Made by a program: the position numbers and the translations under genes. Positions 2,451 through 59,531 of a DNA stretch of 64,000 bases are shown here, in pieces. Position 1 is the first letter of the stretch. Every line of letters starts with the position of its first letter. The notes under the pieces are model-generated. The model was not told the DNA's origin, did not search any database, and saw only the letters and a list, made by a program, of their open reading frames with translations. The stretch is from a virus: positions 12,533 through 76,532 of the IMG/VR virus record IMGVR_UViG_3300046028_007828. One strand, written 5' to 3'.

Positions 2451-5441
2451 ATGGCAATTGAACAAAATGGAAATTACAGCCCTTCGGAACGTATCGTCTC
2501 ACCGGGAGTATTTACCCGAGAAATAGACCAAACGTTTCTTGCACAAGGCGTCGCCGCAATTGGCGGAGTAATCGTGGCACCCTTCAATAAGGGTCCGGGA
2601 TTTTCTCCTACGATAGTAACGAGCGAAGCCGATTTAGTAAGCATCTTCGGAGACCCGGATGGTACATTGTATGGACCAATCACGGCGCAGCAATATTTTC
2701 GCCAGCAAAACCAAGTGACAATCTGTCGCGTTGGTGGTCTTGGCGGATATGAACAAAAAAATGCATTGGTCATCAGCGCAGTTCCGGGACAATATGCAAG
2801 ATTCACCGAATCTGGTTCTTTTACCGGCACTGTTCTTGGAGCTACCACAACATACACAAGCACTCCGGGTGAATTTATCATCTCCGGTTCTCTGTCGTTG
2901 AAATTCTCAAGTGGTATATATTCCGGCTCTACCGTTCTCGTAGGCGACGTGGAATTCATCACAACTGCTGGATTAACAGATTCAAACGGCAGTACATTTA
3001 TTTCTTCGTCGGTCAACTCATTGGCGATTGTAAATACAAATCTCGCCGCACCTTCTGCGCTGATCAGTTCTTCGTTCGTACTGAATCTCGTGGATGGTTG
3101 TAACACGCAACTTGAAGTTGTTGGTAATCTAAGCGGATCATATGGTGCATTAAATACAGCAGTATTTACTCCGTGGGACGTATCGACGGAAGACGCATGT
3201 GGTAGCGCATCGTACGCCACATCCGGCAGCGACGAAGTTGTTCTGGCGGTTTTAGCAAATACTTCTTATGACCGCGGCCAAAATCTATACGGATTCAGTG
3301 GCTCGGTATTGACACCGAAAGATTCATCGGTCGTTGGTGCTGATTATCGGCTACAATTGAACGAGTCGCATTTCGACACGGGATTGAATGTTTATACTAG
3401 CGCATCCTACGGAACCTATGAATTCTCATTGGACCAAGGCGCAAGTTCGTATATCACTTCGGTATTTGGCACCGACGCGAAAGCTGGTTATTACCCAGTA
3501 GCATCAGGACAAAAATTAGAAGTTGCATACACATACGCAAACTTCAAGAACAAGACAAAACAAGTCATCGACGAAATGTTGGCTTCTGGTAGCTGGCAGA
3601 TTAAAGTTACCGCTGTTGATAATATGGCATTCACAGATGGCGTGACTCCAGATGTTGGAACCTCACAATTCGATTTGACTAATGCTTATACTCCATTCAT
3701 CCGTTCGCAATTGGTATCATCCTTTAGCGCCTCGTTTGGGTCTTCTCCGGCGGCATACGATTTGTTCAAAGTACAGACTTTGAGCGACGGTACAAATGCT
3801 AACACGCTATATAAGGTTGAAATCTCCAATGTTCGCTCCGCTGGTTCGATTCCCGGAACGAAATATGGTTCTTTCAGCTTGGCGTTGAGAGAATACACCG
3901 ACACGGACGCTCGTCCAATAGTGCTGGAACGTTACGACAACCTAAACTTGGATGTTAATAGCTCCAATTATGTTTCTCGTCGGATTGGTGATGTTTGGAA
4001 GTATATCGACTTCAACGGAAAGATTGTTGAATTTGGCGACTATTCGAACAAGAGCAAACGCATTCGCGTAGAAATGGCAACATCCCCATGGCCAATTGAC
4101 GCAATTCCATTCGGGTTCGGTCCATACGCTTCGCCGATTGGTGGAGAATATGCTCGCTTAGGTAAACTTGCAGCAATGCAATATACCAGCGCATCTGTGT
4201 ACTCCGCTCAACCGGGTCGTTATGCTTCCGGTATTGTATTCAATCCAGCACCGGCCAATGGCGATTCAGAACTTGTCGCCTTGTATCCAAATGGTTCTTC
4301 AATCGGACCTGAGTTGGATAACAAACAATATTTCTGCCCGCTTCCATTGGGAGCGACAGCAAATGCGAACGTTGGCTTCGACCTAGAAACAAATTGCGGA
4401 TTGTCTCCACTATATATTGCTTCCAACGAAAACACCAACGTCAAAAAGCGCCGCTTCATTCTTGGATTCCAAGGTGGATTCGATGGCCAAAGTCCATCAG
4501 TTCCAGTACTGGTTGGAAATGAAATCTTGCCAACCAACCAACAAGGATTGGATTGCTCGACAAACAAGACCAACGGTTCTTACGCATACAAACAATGTTT
4601 GGCTGCTCTATCGAACTCAGATGAATGGGATTTTAATCTAATCACAACTCCGGGTATTAACTATGACGATCACTCTTACGTCGCATCGTTGGTTGTTGAT
4701 GCATGTGAAAGACGCGGTGACGCATTCTATATCATGGATATCACACACAATCAAATGGCCGGAGAAACATCAATCCAAACCGTGATTGACTTGGCGTCTG
4801 AGTTTGATACCAGCTATGCTGCTACATATTACCCATGGGTTAAAATTATAGAAACCAACACGAACAAAATCATTCCAGTGCCGCCGTCCGTTGTAATGAT
4901 GAGCGTGTTCGCTGCAAGCGATAAAGTCTCCGCCGAATGGTTTGCACCAGCCGGTCTGGGGCGTGGTGGAATCCCAACCGCAGTACAAGTTGTGGACCGT
5001 CTAACGCACACAGAACGCGATTCTCTCTACGAGGGCCGTGTAAATCCAATCGCGGCATTTCCGGGACAAGGTGTAGTAGCATGGGGACAAAAGACCCTAC
5101 AACGCCTACCTTCCGCACTAGACCGCATCAATGTTCGCCGTTTGTTGATTGCATTGAAGAAATTCATCGCATCTTCTTCTCGGTTCTTGGTATTCGAGCA
5201 AAACGTGTCTACGACACGCCAACGTTTCTTGAATATCGTGAATCCATATTTGGAGAGCGTGCAACAACGCAGTGGCATTTACACCTTCAAGGTGGTAATG
5301 GATGACACCAACAACACTCCGGACATGATTGATCGTGGTATCATGTATGGTCAGATTTATATCCAACCAACTCGCACCGCAGAGTTCATCGTACTTGATT
5401 TTAATGTACTCCCGAGCGGTGCTGTTTTTCCGGGCGCATAA
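2451..5441 (+). CDS. Contractile tail sheath protein (T4 gp18-like)
   Basis: SPGVFTREID N-terminus; WFAPAG, RINVRRL, FEQN, QPTRTAEFI C-terminal motifs. Confidence 0.97.
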   Translation: MAIEQNGNYSPSERIVSPGVFTREIDQTFLAQGVAAIGGVIVAPFNKGPGFSPTIVTSEADLVSIFGDPDGTLYGPITAQQYFRQQNQVTICRVGGLGGYEQKNALVISAVPGQYARFTESGSFTGTVLGATTTYTSTPGEFIISGSLSLKFSSGIYSGSTVLVGDVEFITTAGLTDSNGSTFISSSVNSLAIVNTNLAAPSALISSSFVLNLVDGCNTQLEVVGNLSGSYGALNTAVFTPWDVSTEDACGSASYATSGSDEVVLAVLANTSYDRGQNLYGFSGSVLTPKDSSVVGADYRLQLNESHFDTGLNVYTSASYGTYEFSLDQGASSYITSVFGTDAKAGYYPVASGQKLEVAYTYANFKNKTKQVIDEMLASGSWQIKVTAVDNMAFTDGVTPDVGTSQFDLTNAYTPFIRSQLVSSFSASFGSSPAAYDLFKVQTLSDGTNANTLYKVEISNVRSAGSIPGTKYGSFSLALREYTDTDARPIVLERYDNLNLDVNSSNYVSRRIGDVWKYIDFNGKIVEFGDYSNKSKRIRVEMATSPWPIDAIPFGFGPYASPIGGEYARLGKLAAMQYTSASVYSAQPGRYASGIVFNPAPANGDSELVALYPNGSSIGPELDNKQYFCPLPLGATANANVGFDLETNCGLSPLYIASNENTNVKKRRFILGFQGGFDGQSPSVPVLVGNEILPTNQQGLDCSTNKTNGSYAYKQCLAALSNSDEWDFNLITTPGINYDDHSYVASLVVDACERRGDAFYIMDITHNQMAGETSIQTVIDLASEFDTSYAATYYPWVKIIETNTNKIIPVPPSVVMMSVFAASDKVSAEWFAPAGLGRGGIPTAVQVVDRLTHTERDSLYEGRVNPIAAFPGQGVVAWGQKTLQRLPSALDRINVRRLLIALKKFIASSSRFLVFEQNVSTTRQRFLNIVNPYLESVQQRSGIYTFKVVMDDTNNTPDMIDRGIMYGQIYIQPTRTAEFIVLDFNVLPSGAVFPGA

Positions 5442-8675: not shown

Positions 8676-9686
8676 TTACTGGACCTTTTCTCTCTCAAAG
8701 AAGTAGTTGCGAGCAATCTTTGCGATATGTCCGCTTATATCTTTCGCGTCAACCCCGGCTTCCTTGATAGTGTGGGTTTCCTCTTTGGTTACATCGTCGG
8801 TGACAAGTTTGATGAAGTCCCCAACTTTGCTTCGGTCGATTTTTCCTCCGTTCATTAGATCACACGCCTTGTCTAACATTTGCGCTAGCCGCCACTCGGG
8901 AGTAACCTTGACTGCCAAAGTGGTGGCTTTATCAAGTTTCTCCAAATCAATCGGCTTTAGAGTAATAACCTTCGATTTCGAGTGGAGTTCGCCTTTCACT
9001 TTGAAGTAAAATTCTGGCGATTCCCAGCCTTCGGAGACACACTTCCATACAATGCCTTCGCCGATACCGTCAACTCCCATAGCTTTTGCCACAGGGCAGG
9101 ACTCCTCAACCTTAATGGTCAATTCGGAAAGTTTGTTCTGAGAAATTTCTGGCTTGTTGAAGTCGATTTCAATGGTTTCACACGGATAATCGTAAATGTT
9201 GTAAACACCAATGGTTTCGTCTTTTACCTTACTGATGGCTTCTTTTCCAAGCCACTTATCGTCAGCCAACACTCCAAAAACAACAAATCGTTTGGATAGC
9301 TTTGCAATCCCAACGTTGGGTTGAATGTTTCCTCCGCACCACTCACCAAATACGGCATAGTCTTCGCTCGCGGGTTCGATTAAAGAAAACAACTTTCTGA
9401 CAAATTTTCCCTCAAAGTGGCGAACAAACCCTGCATTATCTTTTTCAAGGGCAATGACATTTTCCCGGCTTTGGAACCAAACTTCTCCGGATAAAACATT
9501 TGTACAGATGGCTGCGTTAGTACCATGCAACTTAACCGTGCCTTCATAAGTCAGTACTGGTAAGACTTTAGTGTGATCGTACACGGGGTCACCATTAACA
9601 TCAATACCGGCATGTCTGGCTTTGCAACCGACCTTGTGAATCGCGTTTCTAAACTGTTCGATAGAGGGATATGGAATATGTTTCAT
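8676..9686 (-). CDS. RNA ligase, Rnl2 family
   Basis: VKLHGTN (motif I), FGEW, GEGIVW, FKVKG; own 16-bp-spacer promoter. Confidence 0.85.
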   Translation of the reverse strand: MKHIPYPSIEQFRNAIHKVGCKARHAGIDVNGDPVYDHTKVLPVLTYEGTVKLHGTNAAICTNVLSGEVWFQSRENVIALEKDNAGFVRHFEGKFVRKLFSLIEPASEDYAVFGEWCGGNIQPNVGIAKLSKRFVVFGVLADDKWLGKEAISKVKDETIGVYNIYDYPCETIEIDFNKPEISQNKLSELTIKVEESCPVAKAMGVDGIGEGIVWKCVSEGWESPEFYFKVKGELHSKSKVITLKPIDLEKLDKATTLAVKVTPEWRLAQMLDKACDLMNGGKIDRSKVGDFIKLVTDDVTKEETHTIKEAGVDAKDISGHIAKIARNYFFEREKVQ

Positions 9687-56947: not shown

Positions 56948-57243
56948 AATCTAAACTTGACCAAATGTACAATGAGATTGAAACCGGATGGAATGTCGGT
57001 CTAAAAAAGCTTAGAGAAGGAAGCACCCCCTTGACCGAAAGCGCACGAAAGTCGATAGAAGAAACAAGAAATAACGTTGTGGAAGACATGCGCGATGCAA
57101 ACATATATAGACACATTGGAGTTCCGGGTGCAGCGGAATCTTCGGACCCCGGCGATGATATTGAACATTGGCAAGAAATATATGACTGGTGTTCTCGAAT
57201 ATTATCTATAATAGACGAAATGTTAGCACATAAAACTATATGA
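56944..57243 (+). CDS. Hypothetical protein
   Basis: 99-aa ORF with ATGA overlaps. Confidence 0.6.
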   Translation: MKSKLDQMYNEIETGWNVGLKKLREGSTPLTESARKSIEETRNNVVEDMRDANIYRHIGVPGAAESSDPGDDIEHWQEIYDWCSRILSIIDEMLAHKTI

Positions 57244-57497
57244 ATCGTCGTAGATTTCTAACAACATTGTTTGGGTTGGCAGCGGCTCCTGTTATAGTAG
57301 CGAGAGTATTGTCGGCACCACCCAAGCCGACATTATTGGCTTTCAAAGGAAAGCGGTTTATGGAGACTGGATATGTATATGCTCCATACATTCCAATGCT
57401 TATTACACCGATGATAGATATAAAACCAATGAGAAACTCACCACTCGGTAAAGTATTTTACATGAATAAGTATTATACAAAACATACAACCTTGTGA
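57240..57497 (+). CDS. Small protein: twin-arginine-like signal plus major-capsid-like motifs
   Basis: MNRRRFLTTLFGLAAAP; FKGKRFMETGYVYAPYIPM; IKPMRNSPLGKVFY. Confidence 0.65.
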   Translation: MNRRRFLTTLFGLAAAPVIVARVLSAPPKPTLLAFKGKRFMETGYVYAPYIPMLITPMIDIKPMRNSPLGKVFYMNKYYTKHTTL

Positions 57498-57793
57498 TTA
57501 CTGTCGTAAACAAATACAAACACACTCCAACACCAAATGATATTTATATTGGTCGCGGCTCTGCATTTGGAAATCCATATGTGATTGGCAGTGAATATAC
57601 ACGAGATAAAGCAGTGGATGCATATTGTACATACTTGAATGCCAAGCGGCAATATAATGCACAATTTAGACATGAACTGCAAAAGATTGCCGACAAAGCA
57701 AAGATAAGTGACATAAACCTCGTGTGTTATTGCAAGCCACAAAGATGTCATGGAGATATTTTGAAAGAATTGTTAGAGTCGGAGTATTTATAG
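57494..57793 (+). CDS. DUF4326 protein
   Basis: IYIGRGSAFGNPY...LVCYCKPQRCHGDIL. Confidence 0.88.
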   Translation: MITVVNKYKHTPTPNDIYIGRGSAFGNPYVIGSEYTRDKAVDAYCTYLNAKRQYNAQFRHELQKIADKAKISDINLVCYCKPQRCHGDILKELLESEYL

Positions 57794-57897: not shown

Positions 57898-58809
57898 ATG
57901 TCATATAAACATGGTATTGGTATGTCCGTTTGCATAAATGGACGAGCAACAAAGGAATATTCTAAAGATGGAACTTCCTTTATAGAAGCAAGGCATGGTA
58001 CTAATTATACCGTGAAACTCAAAAACGATAATGGCTATAAAGTAATGGCTGTATTGTCGGTAGATGGATTGGATGTTGTTACAGGCAAACCAGCCGAAGA
58101 CAGTAACAAAGGCTATATTCTTGATCCATACAGCAGTGTAGAAATAAAAGGCTACAGAATCAGCGACAAAGAATCTGCGGCATTTATTTTTACAAGCAAA
58201 GGCAAGAGTTATGTACAACAAACAAGCGGAGATGCCAGAAATTCTGGTGTAATTGGTGTAAGAGTATTTGGTGAAAAATCAAAACCTCAACCAATTTCGC
58301 AACCATATCCGGTGAGTCCGTGGAATCCATTTCCATATTCAATATCTTATGCAACAGGTAGTGGTTTTACGCAAACATATACAAACTATGTTTCTACGGG
58401 CGGTACAACTACTTGTGCAACAAATGCCGCAACATACACCACATCCAACAATACTCTTGGATGTTATGGAACAAATGCCGCAACATTTACTACCGAAACC
58501 GCAATCACAAGCAGAAATCTCGGACTAAATACCAGATCGGCAATATCAAATACATTTGATACTCCGTTGAGTTACAAACAATTTGACACTGGTACTGGTT
58601 GGGGCAAAAAGTTGGACGACAGAGTAAAAAAAGAATACTTTGATAAAGGAGAACTTCTTGCCGAGATTGTGTCTTATTATGCTTCACGCGAAGCATTGGA
58701 AACTATGGGAATTGATTTGTCTGATAGTCCAAGAGTTACCGAAGAAGAAAAAAAGCCACAGGCATTTGGTAGCAAATATTGCCAACCACCAACTGGATGG
58801 GTCGGCTAA
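57898..58809 (+). CDS. Hypothetical conserved protein with Thr-rich linker
   Basis: VLSVDGLDVVTG...GVIGVRVF.E...GTGWG; promoter TTGACA-16-CATAGT at 57814..57841. Confidence 0.7.
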   Translation: MSYKHGIGMSVCINGRATKEYSKDGTSFIEARHGTNYTVKLKNDNGYKVMAVLSVDGLDVVTGKPAEDSNKGYILDPYSSVEIKGYRISDKESAAFIFTSKGKSYVQQTSGDARNSGVIGVRVFGEKSKPQPISQPYPVSPWNPFPYSISYATGSGFTQTYTNYVSTGGTTTCATNAATYTTSNNTLGCYGTNAATFTTETAITSRNLGLNTRSAISNTFDTPLSYKQFDTGTGWGKKLDDRVKKEYFDKGELLAEIVSYYASREALETMGIDLSDSPRVTEEEKKPQAFGSKYCQPPTGWVG

Positions 58810-58838
58810 AAAATAAACAATCAAATACAAAACTTTAT

Positions 58839-59531
58839 ATGAAAAAAATTATTCACGCACTAACAATCATCGACAAATCAAGCAGTATGAATCCTTATCG
58901 CTCTCGTACCATTGAAGGGATCAATGAAAATATCAACGCTCTCAAAAAAGAAGTAGATGCCGACACGGACATTCTTAATACTCAACTTCAATTCAGTGCA
59001 ACTGGAAATTCTTGGGGATGGAATGGGGGAGCAAAAACCCAAGAAACGGACTTAAAGTTTGTTCGGGTTGGTCAAAAGGTACAAGAATTGACGGATATGA
59101 CCAATGAACAATATGAACCAGCGGGCGGCACTCCATTACTTGATGCTATTGGTCTTGGTATTGAAAAAGTAAAAGATTTCCACGGTGACAAGCTCGGTGA
59201 AGATAATCTCAAGATCATTGTGACAATCTTTACTGACGGAGAAGAAAACTCGTCCATCAAGCATGATCGCGCAAGTATCAAGAAGATGATTGATCATTTT
59301 CAATCTGATGGAAAGTGGACTTTCACTTTCGTTGGCTGTGGATCGTTTGATAATGTAGCGGCAACATCTGCTGCTATGGGGATAAATGCCGCCAATACGA
59401 TTGCAGTCGCTGACAGTGACGCAGGAAGATCAGTTGCCAATGCTAAAATTGCAACCTCATATACAAACTATGTAAGGTCTGCAAAATTGGGAGTGGTTGA
59501 CAACGACCTGTTTACAGAAAAAAGTCTATAA
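58839..59531 (+). CDS. von Willebrand factor A domain protein
   Basis: IIDKSSSM MIDAS, GGTPLLDAIG, FTDGEENSS, W.F.FVG. Confidence 0.88.
   Translation: MKKIIHALTIIDKSSSMNPYRSRTIEGINENINALKKEVDADTDILNTQLQFSATGNSWGWNGGAKTQETDLKFVRVGQKVQELTDMTNEQYEPAGGTPLLDAIGLGIEKVKDFHGDKLGEDNLKIIVTIFTDGEENSSIKHDRASIKKMIDHFQSDGKWTFTFVGCGSFDNVAATSAAMGINAANTIAVADSDAGRSVANAKIATSYTNYVRSAKLGVVDNDLFTEKSL

Follow-up and report, generated by a model that had tools for sequence, protein, structure and literature searches.

The window, by which we mean the whole 64,000-nucleotide stretch of viral DNA that was analysed, carries a small forward-strand gene (hereafter the mini-gene) whose reading frame and 85-residue product were confirmed as a sequence-only reading of this DNA had drawn them. 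The gene is packed in a run of same-strand genes and overlaps both of its neighbours by 4 bp, its ATG sharing letters with the stop codon of the 99-aa gene that precedes it (ATGA) and its own stop codon with the GTG of a downstream DUF4326 gene (GTGA; Table 1). No family match was found for the 99-aa gene. Farther upstream lie a gene for an ADP-ribosylglycohydrolase (ARH, E 4e-68), a 72-aa gene and a weak match to 2H phosphoesterases (E 2.5e-4), and the DUF4326 gene is followed by a DUF7918-like gene and then by a vWA-like gene. The earlier reading had set the mini-gene among ARH, 2H and DUF4326 genes far from any structural gene; the ARH and DUF4326 assignments are borne out, the 2H assignment holds at the level of that weak match only, and the site does belong to an accessory region, with no capsid gene nearby or anywhere else on the source IMG/VR contig (76.5 kb, estimated 32% complete). 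As a separate observation on this stretch (window 56048 to ~57796), in short contigs from two lake runs (X1, X22) the end of the 72-aa gene is followed, after 13-18 other letters, by the region just past the DUF4326 gene; one flank is only 19 nt long, and this weak evidence would correspond to a relative without the whole ARH-99aa-mini-DUF4326 block.

Table 1. Features of the mini-gene and its coupled neighbours (positions in the window)
Feature	Position	Strand	Description
Whole mini-gene	57240..57497	+	85 codons + stop; 7 close homologues, at least 341 family representatives
Twin-arginine-type leader, residues 1-26	57240..57317	+	MNRRRFL, 16 uncharged residues, R22; family statistics, AlphaFold helix
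Capsid piece C, residues ~27-56	57318..57407	+	Copy of the C-terminal P-domain beta-hairpin, ..FKG..G.VYAPYIPM then LITP
Capsid piece A, residues ~57-79	57408..57476	+	Copied N-proximal strand (DIKPMRNSPLGKVFYMNKYY); Gol maps to this region of gp23
Short C-terminal tail TKHTTL	57477..57494	+	Common to close homologues P0002-P0005
Upstream coupled gene, 99 aa	56944..57243	+	Occupies the slot of the leader + N-proximal-piece gene in L086 and L104
Downstream coupled gene, DUF4326	57494..57793	+	E 4e-20; syntenic in L086 and L104

The leader of the window protein reads N-R-R-R-F-L-T against the Tat consensus S/T-R-R-x-F-L-K and continues into a hydrophobic region of 16 uncharged residues (at least 13 being the threshold of the test) that is closed by the basic residue R22, and by this rule it is twin-arginine-like, as had been proposed. 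The same design recurs across 144 small members of the family described below, in which no part is more conserved than the leader: 140 of them carry RR, usually at positions 3-4, and it is followed by F in 94%, then by L or F in 94% and by K or R at the next position (+4) in 47%, while the hydrophobic region has a median of 16 uncharged residues and a basic residue comes first after it in 103 of 134 members (77%). The TAT-signal HMMs PF10518 and TIGR01409 gave no match (Pfam at E<=1, NCBIfam at E<=10) in searches sped up by filters that discard weak hits on short models, and neither a lipobox nor a conserved cleavage site (AxA) was found in the family leaders; look-alikes in the protein atlas include Tat substrates, at lead-level scores only. 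In the window protein and some relatives a proline stands past the likely cleavage site (LSA-PP), and a proline directly past a cleavage site blocks signal peptidase I. The window holds no second Tat-leader ORF.

A closely similar N-terminus, MNR[KST]xFF.TLFG.., was also seen in small proteins with unrelated passengers at L083:5636-5998 (+), in L084, L092 and L099 (97 aa), in L085 and L097 (121 aa, Cys-rich) and at L090:70-504 (-), some of these look-alikes having a single arginine. This may represent a leader module on other cargo or merely a common signal-peptide shape, the DNA pattern used in the search being one that forces likeness. The degenerate DNA pattern of the leader did return further copies in metagenomes, and a combined pattern of leader and hairpin with a gap of 100-130 nt had no match in IMG/VR.

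Downstream of the leader, the first segment of the mature part (~residues 26-59) carries the motif G[YF]KG...YAPYIP, as in gp23-type major capsid proteins. For comparison, 79 capsid genes were extracted from 80 IMG/VR loci, and an HMM of the 31 non-redundant proteins among them matched this segment with an i-E-value of 4e-13, placing it on the capsid C-terminal hairpin. This placement was further supported by Smith-Waterman scores of ~89 on the hairpin vs 26 +/- 4 in shuffles, by a co-linear hhalign match of the subfamily to the capsid alignment (E 9e-12, with high confidence over the hairpin only), by a match of family profile positions 31-58 to T4 gp23* 365-392 (full-length 430-457), and by tblastn matches of residues 32-59 to capsid proteins of Flavobacterium, Microcystis and huge uncultured phages. 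The claim that this segment derives from the C-terminal motif of gp23 is thus well founded. The Pfam model Gp23 (PF07068) matches residues 29-66 with E 3.3e-4 and 20.6 bits (17.3 bits in another search), below its curated cut-off of 24.4, and covers only positions 301-334 of the 376 in the profile; judged from sequence, the mini-protein is a fragment derivative of the capsid protein and not a member of the Gp23 family.

At the DNA level, contigs of other lake phages share 36 nt of the hairpin-coding sequence (window 57359-57409) and run on as capsid-like sequence, for example with ..MGYKGSN.. before and ..YDPNTFTP.. after it. YAPYIP-coding DNA that is common to co-occurring phages is a possible substrate for recombination.

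The second segment (~residues 57-79) carries a strand of the VQPM..P.G.VF type that lies near the N-terminus in capsid proteins, and its assignment draws on region-specific and family-level tests, since with the full-length capsid HMM and the window protein alone it appears as a second domain at a non-significant i-E of 0.27. When the tail of the window protein (residues 54-85) was compared with separate profiles, it scored 13.3 bits on the capsid N-proximal profile (E 2.3e-6, one-sequence search) vs 1.1 bits on the profile of the capsid C-terminal tail, and the tail of a hairpin-type gene in the related genome L086 showed the reverse pattern, favouring the C-terminal-tail profile over the N-proximal one. 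Smith-Waterman scores of the segment averaged 39.5 on the N-proximal 220 residues vs 21 +/- 3.5 in shuffles (z ~5) and stayed at shuffle level on the capsid tail past YAPY. Likewise, an alternative hhalign match (E 1.7e-6) set residues 55-76 on capsid residues 88-107 with high posterior, and family profile positions 55-80 weakly matched T4 gp23* 38-63 (full-length 103-128, 'IPNLIAFDICGVQPMNSPTGQVFALR').

Because each segment was placed by its own separate tests, the swapped order of the two capsid pieces is real, and the sequence-only reading, which had named both motifs and their permutation, is sustained on these points: the protein resembles gp23 profiles significantly, and its ORF is a conserved one. 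A plainer candidate, a co-linear copy of the capsid C-terminus, had been suggested by gapped tblastn against the 80 IMG/VR loci, in which residues 26-85 aligned co-linearly with the capsid C-terminus, and by the top hhalign match. It was ruled out by the segment-wise tests; the co-linear alignment rests on the hairpin and on 'LTP', and crosses the second segment only with gaps and at low posterior. It follows from published domain descriptions, which assign both stretches to the same P domain, that the two segments would be spatially adjacent in the capsid fold.

A comparison of gene order with related genomes places this composite protein in a broader setting. In L086 the order runs 2H, 72-aa gene, X, mini-N, mini-C, DUF4326, DUF7918-like and vWA, where mini-N encodes a leader with the N-proximal piece (8899-9162, +) and mini-C a leader with the hairpin (9159-9440, +); in L104 it runs clamp loader, 2H, 72-aa gene, DUF4326, 86-aa gene, mini-N (4509-4724, -), mini-C (4228-4512, -) and, farther on, DUF7918-like and vWA. 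In both genomes the two genes overlap by 4 nt, and the same tandem pair is present in L103. The mini-N piece matches the capsid protein over residues 62-116 (hhalign E 1.8e-12). The leader and hairpin part of the window protein match the mini-C genes at z 11-19, and for its tail z is 5.3-6.9 against the mini-N genes vs 1.5 and -1.3 against the tails of mini-C; the window itself contains no separate mini-N gene. By these sequence comparisons, the mini-gene has arisen as a natural fusion, its two parts being separate, translationally coupled genes in syntenic relatives, at a position conserved in three genomes (the window, L086 and L104). Where two pieces are encoded apart in some genomes and joined in others, they usually act together, and this pattern suggests that the two capsid pieces do so as well. 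Also conserved downstream is a DUF7918-like gene with a vWA-like gene (phrog_7371) after it, at window 57898-59531, L086:9975-11606 and L104:1286-2980.

The protein had been regarded as a one-off assembly of capsid motifs, and it is here that the earlier view has to be replaced, as the fusion belongs to a large modular family in which its pieces also occur separately. Seven close homologues share 56-99% identity with it, the nearest (P0001, 99% identical) lying on a 236-kb contig, and it is this twin that gives the window protein its score of 139.6 bits on the family profile. An exhaustive profile search with an E-value limit of 1e-3 recovered at least 341 cluster representatives, and among the best 150 of them ~135 are 58-142 residues long and are matched from residue 1. 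When 144 small members were mapped onto the capsid HMM, the passenger behind the leader was the hairpin alone in 91 members and the hairpin with its co-linear C-terminal tail in 25; the arrangement of the window protein, hairpin then N-proximal strand, was found in 6, with the window's closest homologues falling just under threshold. The remaining architectures comprise the hairpin followed by strand and spine helix (3 members), strand and spine helix followed by the hairpin (3), strand and spine helix alone (4) and the N-proximal strand alone (2), the spine helix being present in 10 members in all. Every recruited piece belongs to the discontinuous P domain of the capsid protein, and capsid-invariant residues are kept in the mini-proteins. 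On sequence grounds, therefore, the family is one of small proteins of uncultured gp23-type (T4-like) phages that join a conserved leader to one or two P-domain pieces, and the window protein, with its MNRRxF[LF] leader, gp23 P-domain piece and length within ~60-140 residues, is a member of it. A published description of such a family of capsid-fragment mini-proteins was not found in full-text searches of the literature; what is new for this gene is its fused and permuted form, together with its syntenic two-gene counterparts and the count of architectures.

Another reading is that capsid beta-strands were simply co-opted as generic modules for strand pairing or plugging, at work in the periplasm or at the translocon, in an envelope function that involves no capsid recognition; superinfection exclusion, interference with the insertion of outer-membrane proteins, and saturating the Tat pathway or signal peptidase would be examples. 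The conservation of the leader, the occurrence of similar leaders on unrelated small passengers and the LSA-PP proline would all agree with it; left unexplained are the repeated recruitment of three or four pieces of one protein's P domain and the retention of capsid-invariant residues, both of which argue against a role unrelated to the capsid, and we hold this reading to be unlikely.

The distribution of the mini-gene is patchy. It is missing from four large gp23-type genomes, including two with a completeness of at least 93%, and three protein queries against 50,697 cultured-phage records returned full-length capsid genes only and no mini-genes. Two cultured-phage candidates, H13 and H54, were mini-gene-like by coverage and turned out to be capsid genes. 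Outside the window's clade the gene contexts differ, the contig of L082 has no capsid gene, and the copy in L098 is a degenerate 68-aa family member; near this last copy, neighbouring genes at L098:5526-6748 (-) resemble by eye a bilin reductase and a heme oxygenase, like the auxiliary genes of cyanophages. A single 21.5-kb contig (G008) holds both kinds of gene, a 72-aa mini-gene (L106:9991-10209) and, ~14 kb away, a complete gp23-type capsid gene of 468 aa (L112). In its mini-protein the first hairpin strand has decayed, the stretch 'DAGYFYAPYIP' is identical in the capsid protein of the same contig, and overall the mini-protein is no closer to this capsid protein than to two others. The G008 mini-gene adjoins resolvase-like and transposase-like genes, as read by eye from their N-terminal sequences. 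In view of its absence from these genomes and from the cultured phages searched, the varied contexts and the degenerate copies, the mini-gene behaves like a non-essential, fast-changing accessory gene.

The mosaic and permuted architecture and degenerate copies such as that of L098 might be expected of functionless debris left by recombination with a capsid gene. This is very improbable in view of the 341 cluster representatives with intact frames, the RR retained almost throughout the small members (140/144), the 4-bp overlaps kept with both neighbours and the conserved position in three syntenic genomes. The stretch is, in addition, nearly unchanged in 24 lake-water DNA runs dated 2020-2025, of which 23 may be source samples; no natural variants of the mini-gene occur in four lake runs, and no RNA runs are among the listed runs that hold the stretch.

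An accessory, fast-changing gene in a phage that shares its lakes with many related phages, whose capsid genes have a DNA motif in common with it, could also be a weapon against co-infecting relatives, its fragments acting as dominant negatives on the head assembly of a competitor and its leader limiting self-harm. The fragments resemble the capsid proteins of the phage's own wider lineage, so that self-poisoning would be expected, and export would take the poison away from the site of assembly; we consider a weapon of this kind distinctly improbable.

Structure prediction bears on how the two halves of the protein may work. With AlphaFold, run on 10 and then on 86 sequences, a helix was predicted for the leader (residues 3-25, pLDDT >80 with 86 sequences). 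The capsid-derived part stayed at pLDDT 50-66 with no predicted structure, and it is accordingly probably either a peptide motif or a segment that folds only on a partner. One such partner could be the capsid protein itself, the mini-protein serving as a membrane-tethered helper or regulator of head assembly or capsid folding in its own phage: the leader would dock at the inner membrane or the Tat receptor, and the P-domain pieces would complement strands of unfolded or newly made capsid protein, thereby tethering, timing or chaperoning it. T4 proheads assemble on the inner membrane, all pieces derive from the P domain, the split and fused forms suggest that the pieces associate, and the mature part is predicted to need a partner to fold. 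Moreover, sequence alignment places A455 in the hairpin piece and G292, V306 and V307 in the spine-helix piece, and these are T4 gp31-bypass sites that govern the chaperonin dependence of gp23 folding (PMC9546572). Against an assembly helper stand the absence of the gene from the four large gp23-type genomes and from the cultured phages searched, its location in accessory regions outside head modules, the rapid turnover of its architecture and the expectation that translocation by Tat would leave the passenger on the periplasmic side, remote from the site of assembly. An accessory, fast-changing gene argues against an essential assembly role in particular, and we rate this explanation as doubtful.

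Among the readings considered, the most likely, which we put forward tentatively, is that the mini-protein is an envelope-targeted mimic of capsid motifs, acting as a decoy or competitor. In its best-supported step, the leader would route the protein to the Tat pathway, after which the protein would either keep an uncleaved leader as its anchor in the inner membrane or be released into the periplasm. The capsid-derived part of ~55 residues would have no fold of its own and would act as a linear or partner-dependent motif. In the least supported step, to which our tentative rating applies, the protein would mimic the capsid protein towards something that recognises its conserved motifs; the likeliest partner would be a host factor or an immune sensor, with the mini-protein serving in an arms race as decoy or competitor rather than as a building block of the head. 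Mimicry is suggested because the pieces correspond to the most conserved capsid motifs with their invariant residues kept, and this reading is rated above the others because of the precedent of the Gol peptide and the role of capsid proteins as immune triggers. The Gol stretch, a 29-residue peptide that binds domains II and III of EF-Tu, is the most conserved part of gp23 (PMC3014915), and capsid proteins are common triggers of immunity (PMC9712102; PMC13581612).

The compartment poses a difficulty for the mimic, as a Tat leader would bring the capsid-like part to the periplasmic side. To our knowledge, every known capsid sensor (Lit/Gol-EF-Tu, CapRel, Avs7) acts in the cytoplasm, which argues against a decoy, and we know of no defence system that is blocked by a capsid fragment. 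A more specific proposal, which we judge rather less probable still than the assembly and envelope explanations, is a modular display system in T4-like phages: one Tat leader, combined with invariant P-domain motifs in coupled genes or fusions, would bring peptides that resemble the capsid protein to the inner membrane or past it, where they would neutralise a hypothetical envelope-associated sensor of head proteins or export a cytoplasmic capsid-binding host factor by Tat 'hitch-hiking'. If true, this would amount to a new principle of counter-defence. Capsid proteins are major triggers of bacterial immunity, and we know of no described phage counter-measure that is made of capsid fragments. 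A widespread family that pairs capsid motifs with an export leader points to unfamiliar envelope biology, whether decoy, assembly aid or inter-phage warfare, and the fusion in the window, which unites separately encoded pieces in one small construct, is an argument for their joint action.

Among the known systems nearest to the mini-protein is T4 gp23 (PF07068; PDB 5VF3, 7VS5, 8T9R): residues ~27-56 of the mini-protein correspond to gp23 430-457, the P-domain hairpin with A455, and residues ~57-79 to gp23 ~103-128, with capsid-invariant residues kept. The mini-protein differs in having ~50 of the ~520 residues, in swapped order and behind an export-type leader, and it lacks the A domain, the insertion domain, the spine helix and a predicted fold. 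The system of Gol, Lit (of prophage e14) and EF-Tu offers a second point of comparison, in that the second segment is a stand-alone copy of a conserved stretch from the first quarter of gp23, where Gol lies. Taking Gol to span residues ~93-122 of T4 gp23, as we presume, the ~20 residues of the mini-protein probably overlap only its C-terminal half, and the leader implies another compartment; the likeness to a Gol-type Lit trigger lies in sequence overlap with gp23 ~103-128. Bacterial Tat signal peptides, among them signal-anchors that stay uncleaved as in the Rieske protein, share with the leader the RRxF[LF](K) motif, a moderately hydrophobic region of 16 residues and a basic residue after it; the leader departs from them in a very short n-region ('MN'), its unusual conservation, an unusually short and unstructured passenger and the lack of a conserved AxA. 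Finally, DSAD1, which acts against DSR2 (PMC11087589), is likewise a small accessory phage protein that blocks the sensing of a structural protein, as the mini-protein may do for a conserved virion protein; DSAD1, for its part, is no piece of the protein that is sensed, and it bears no export leader.
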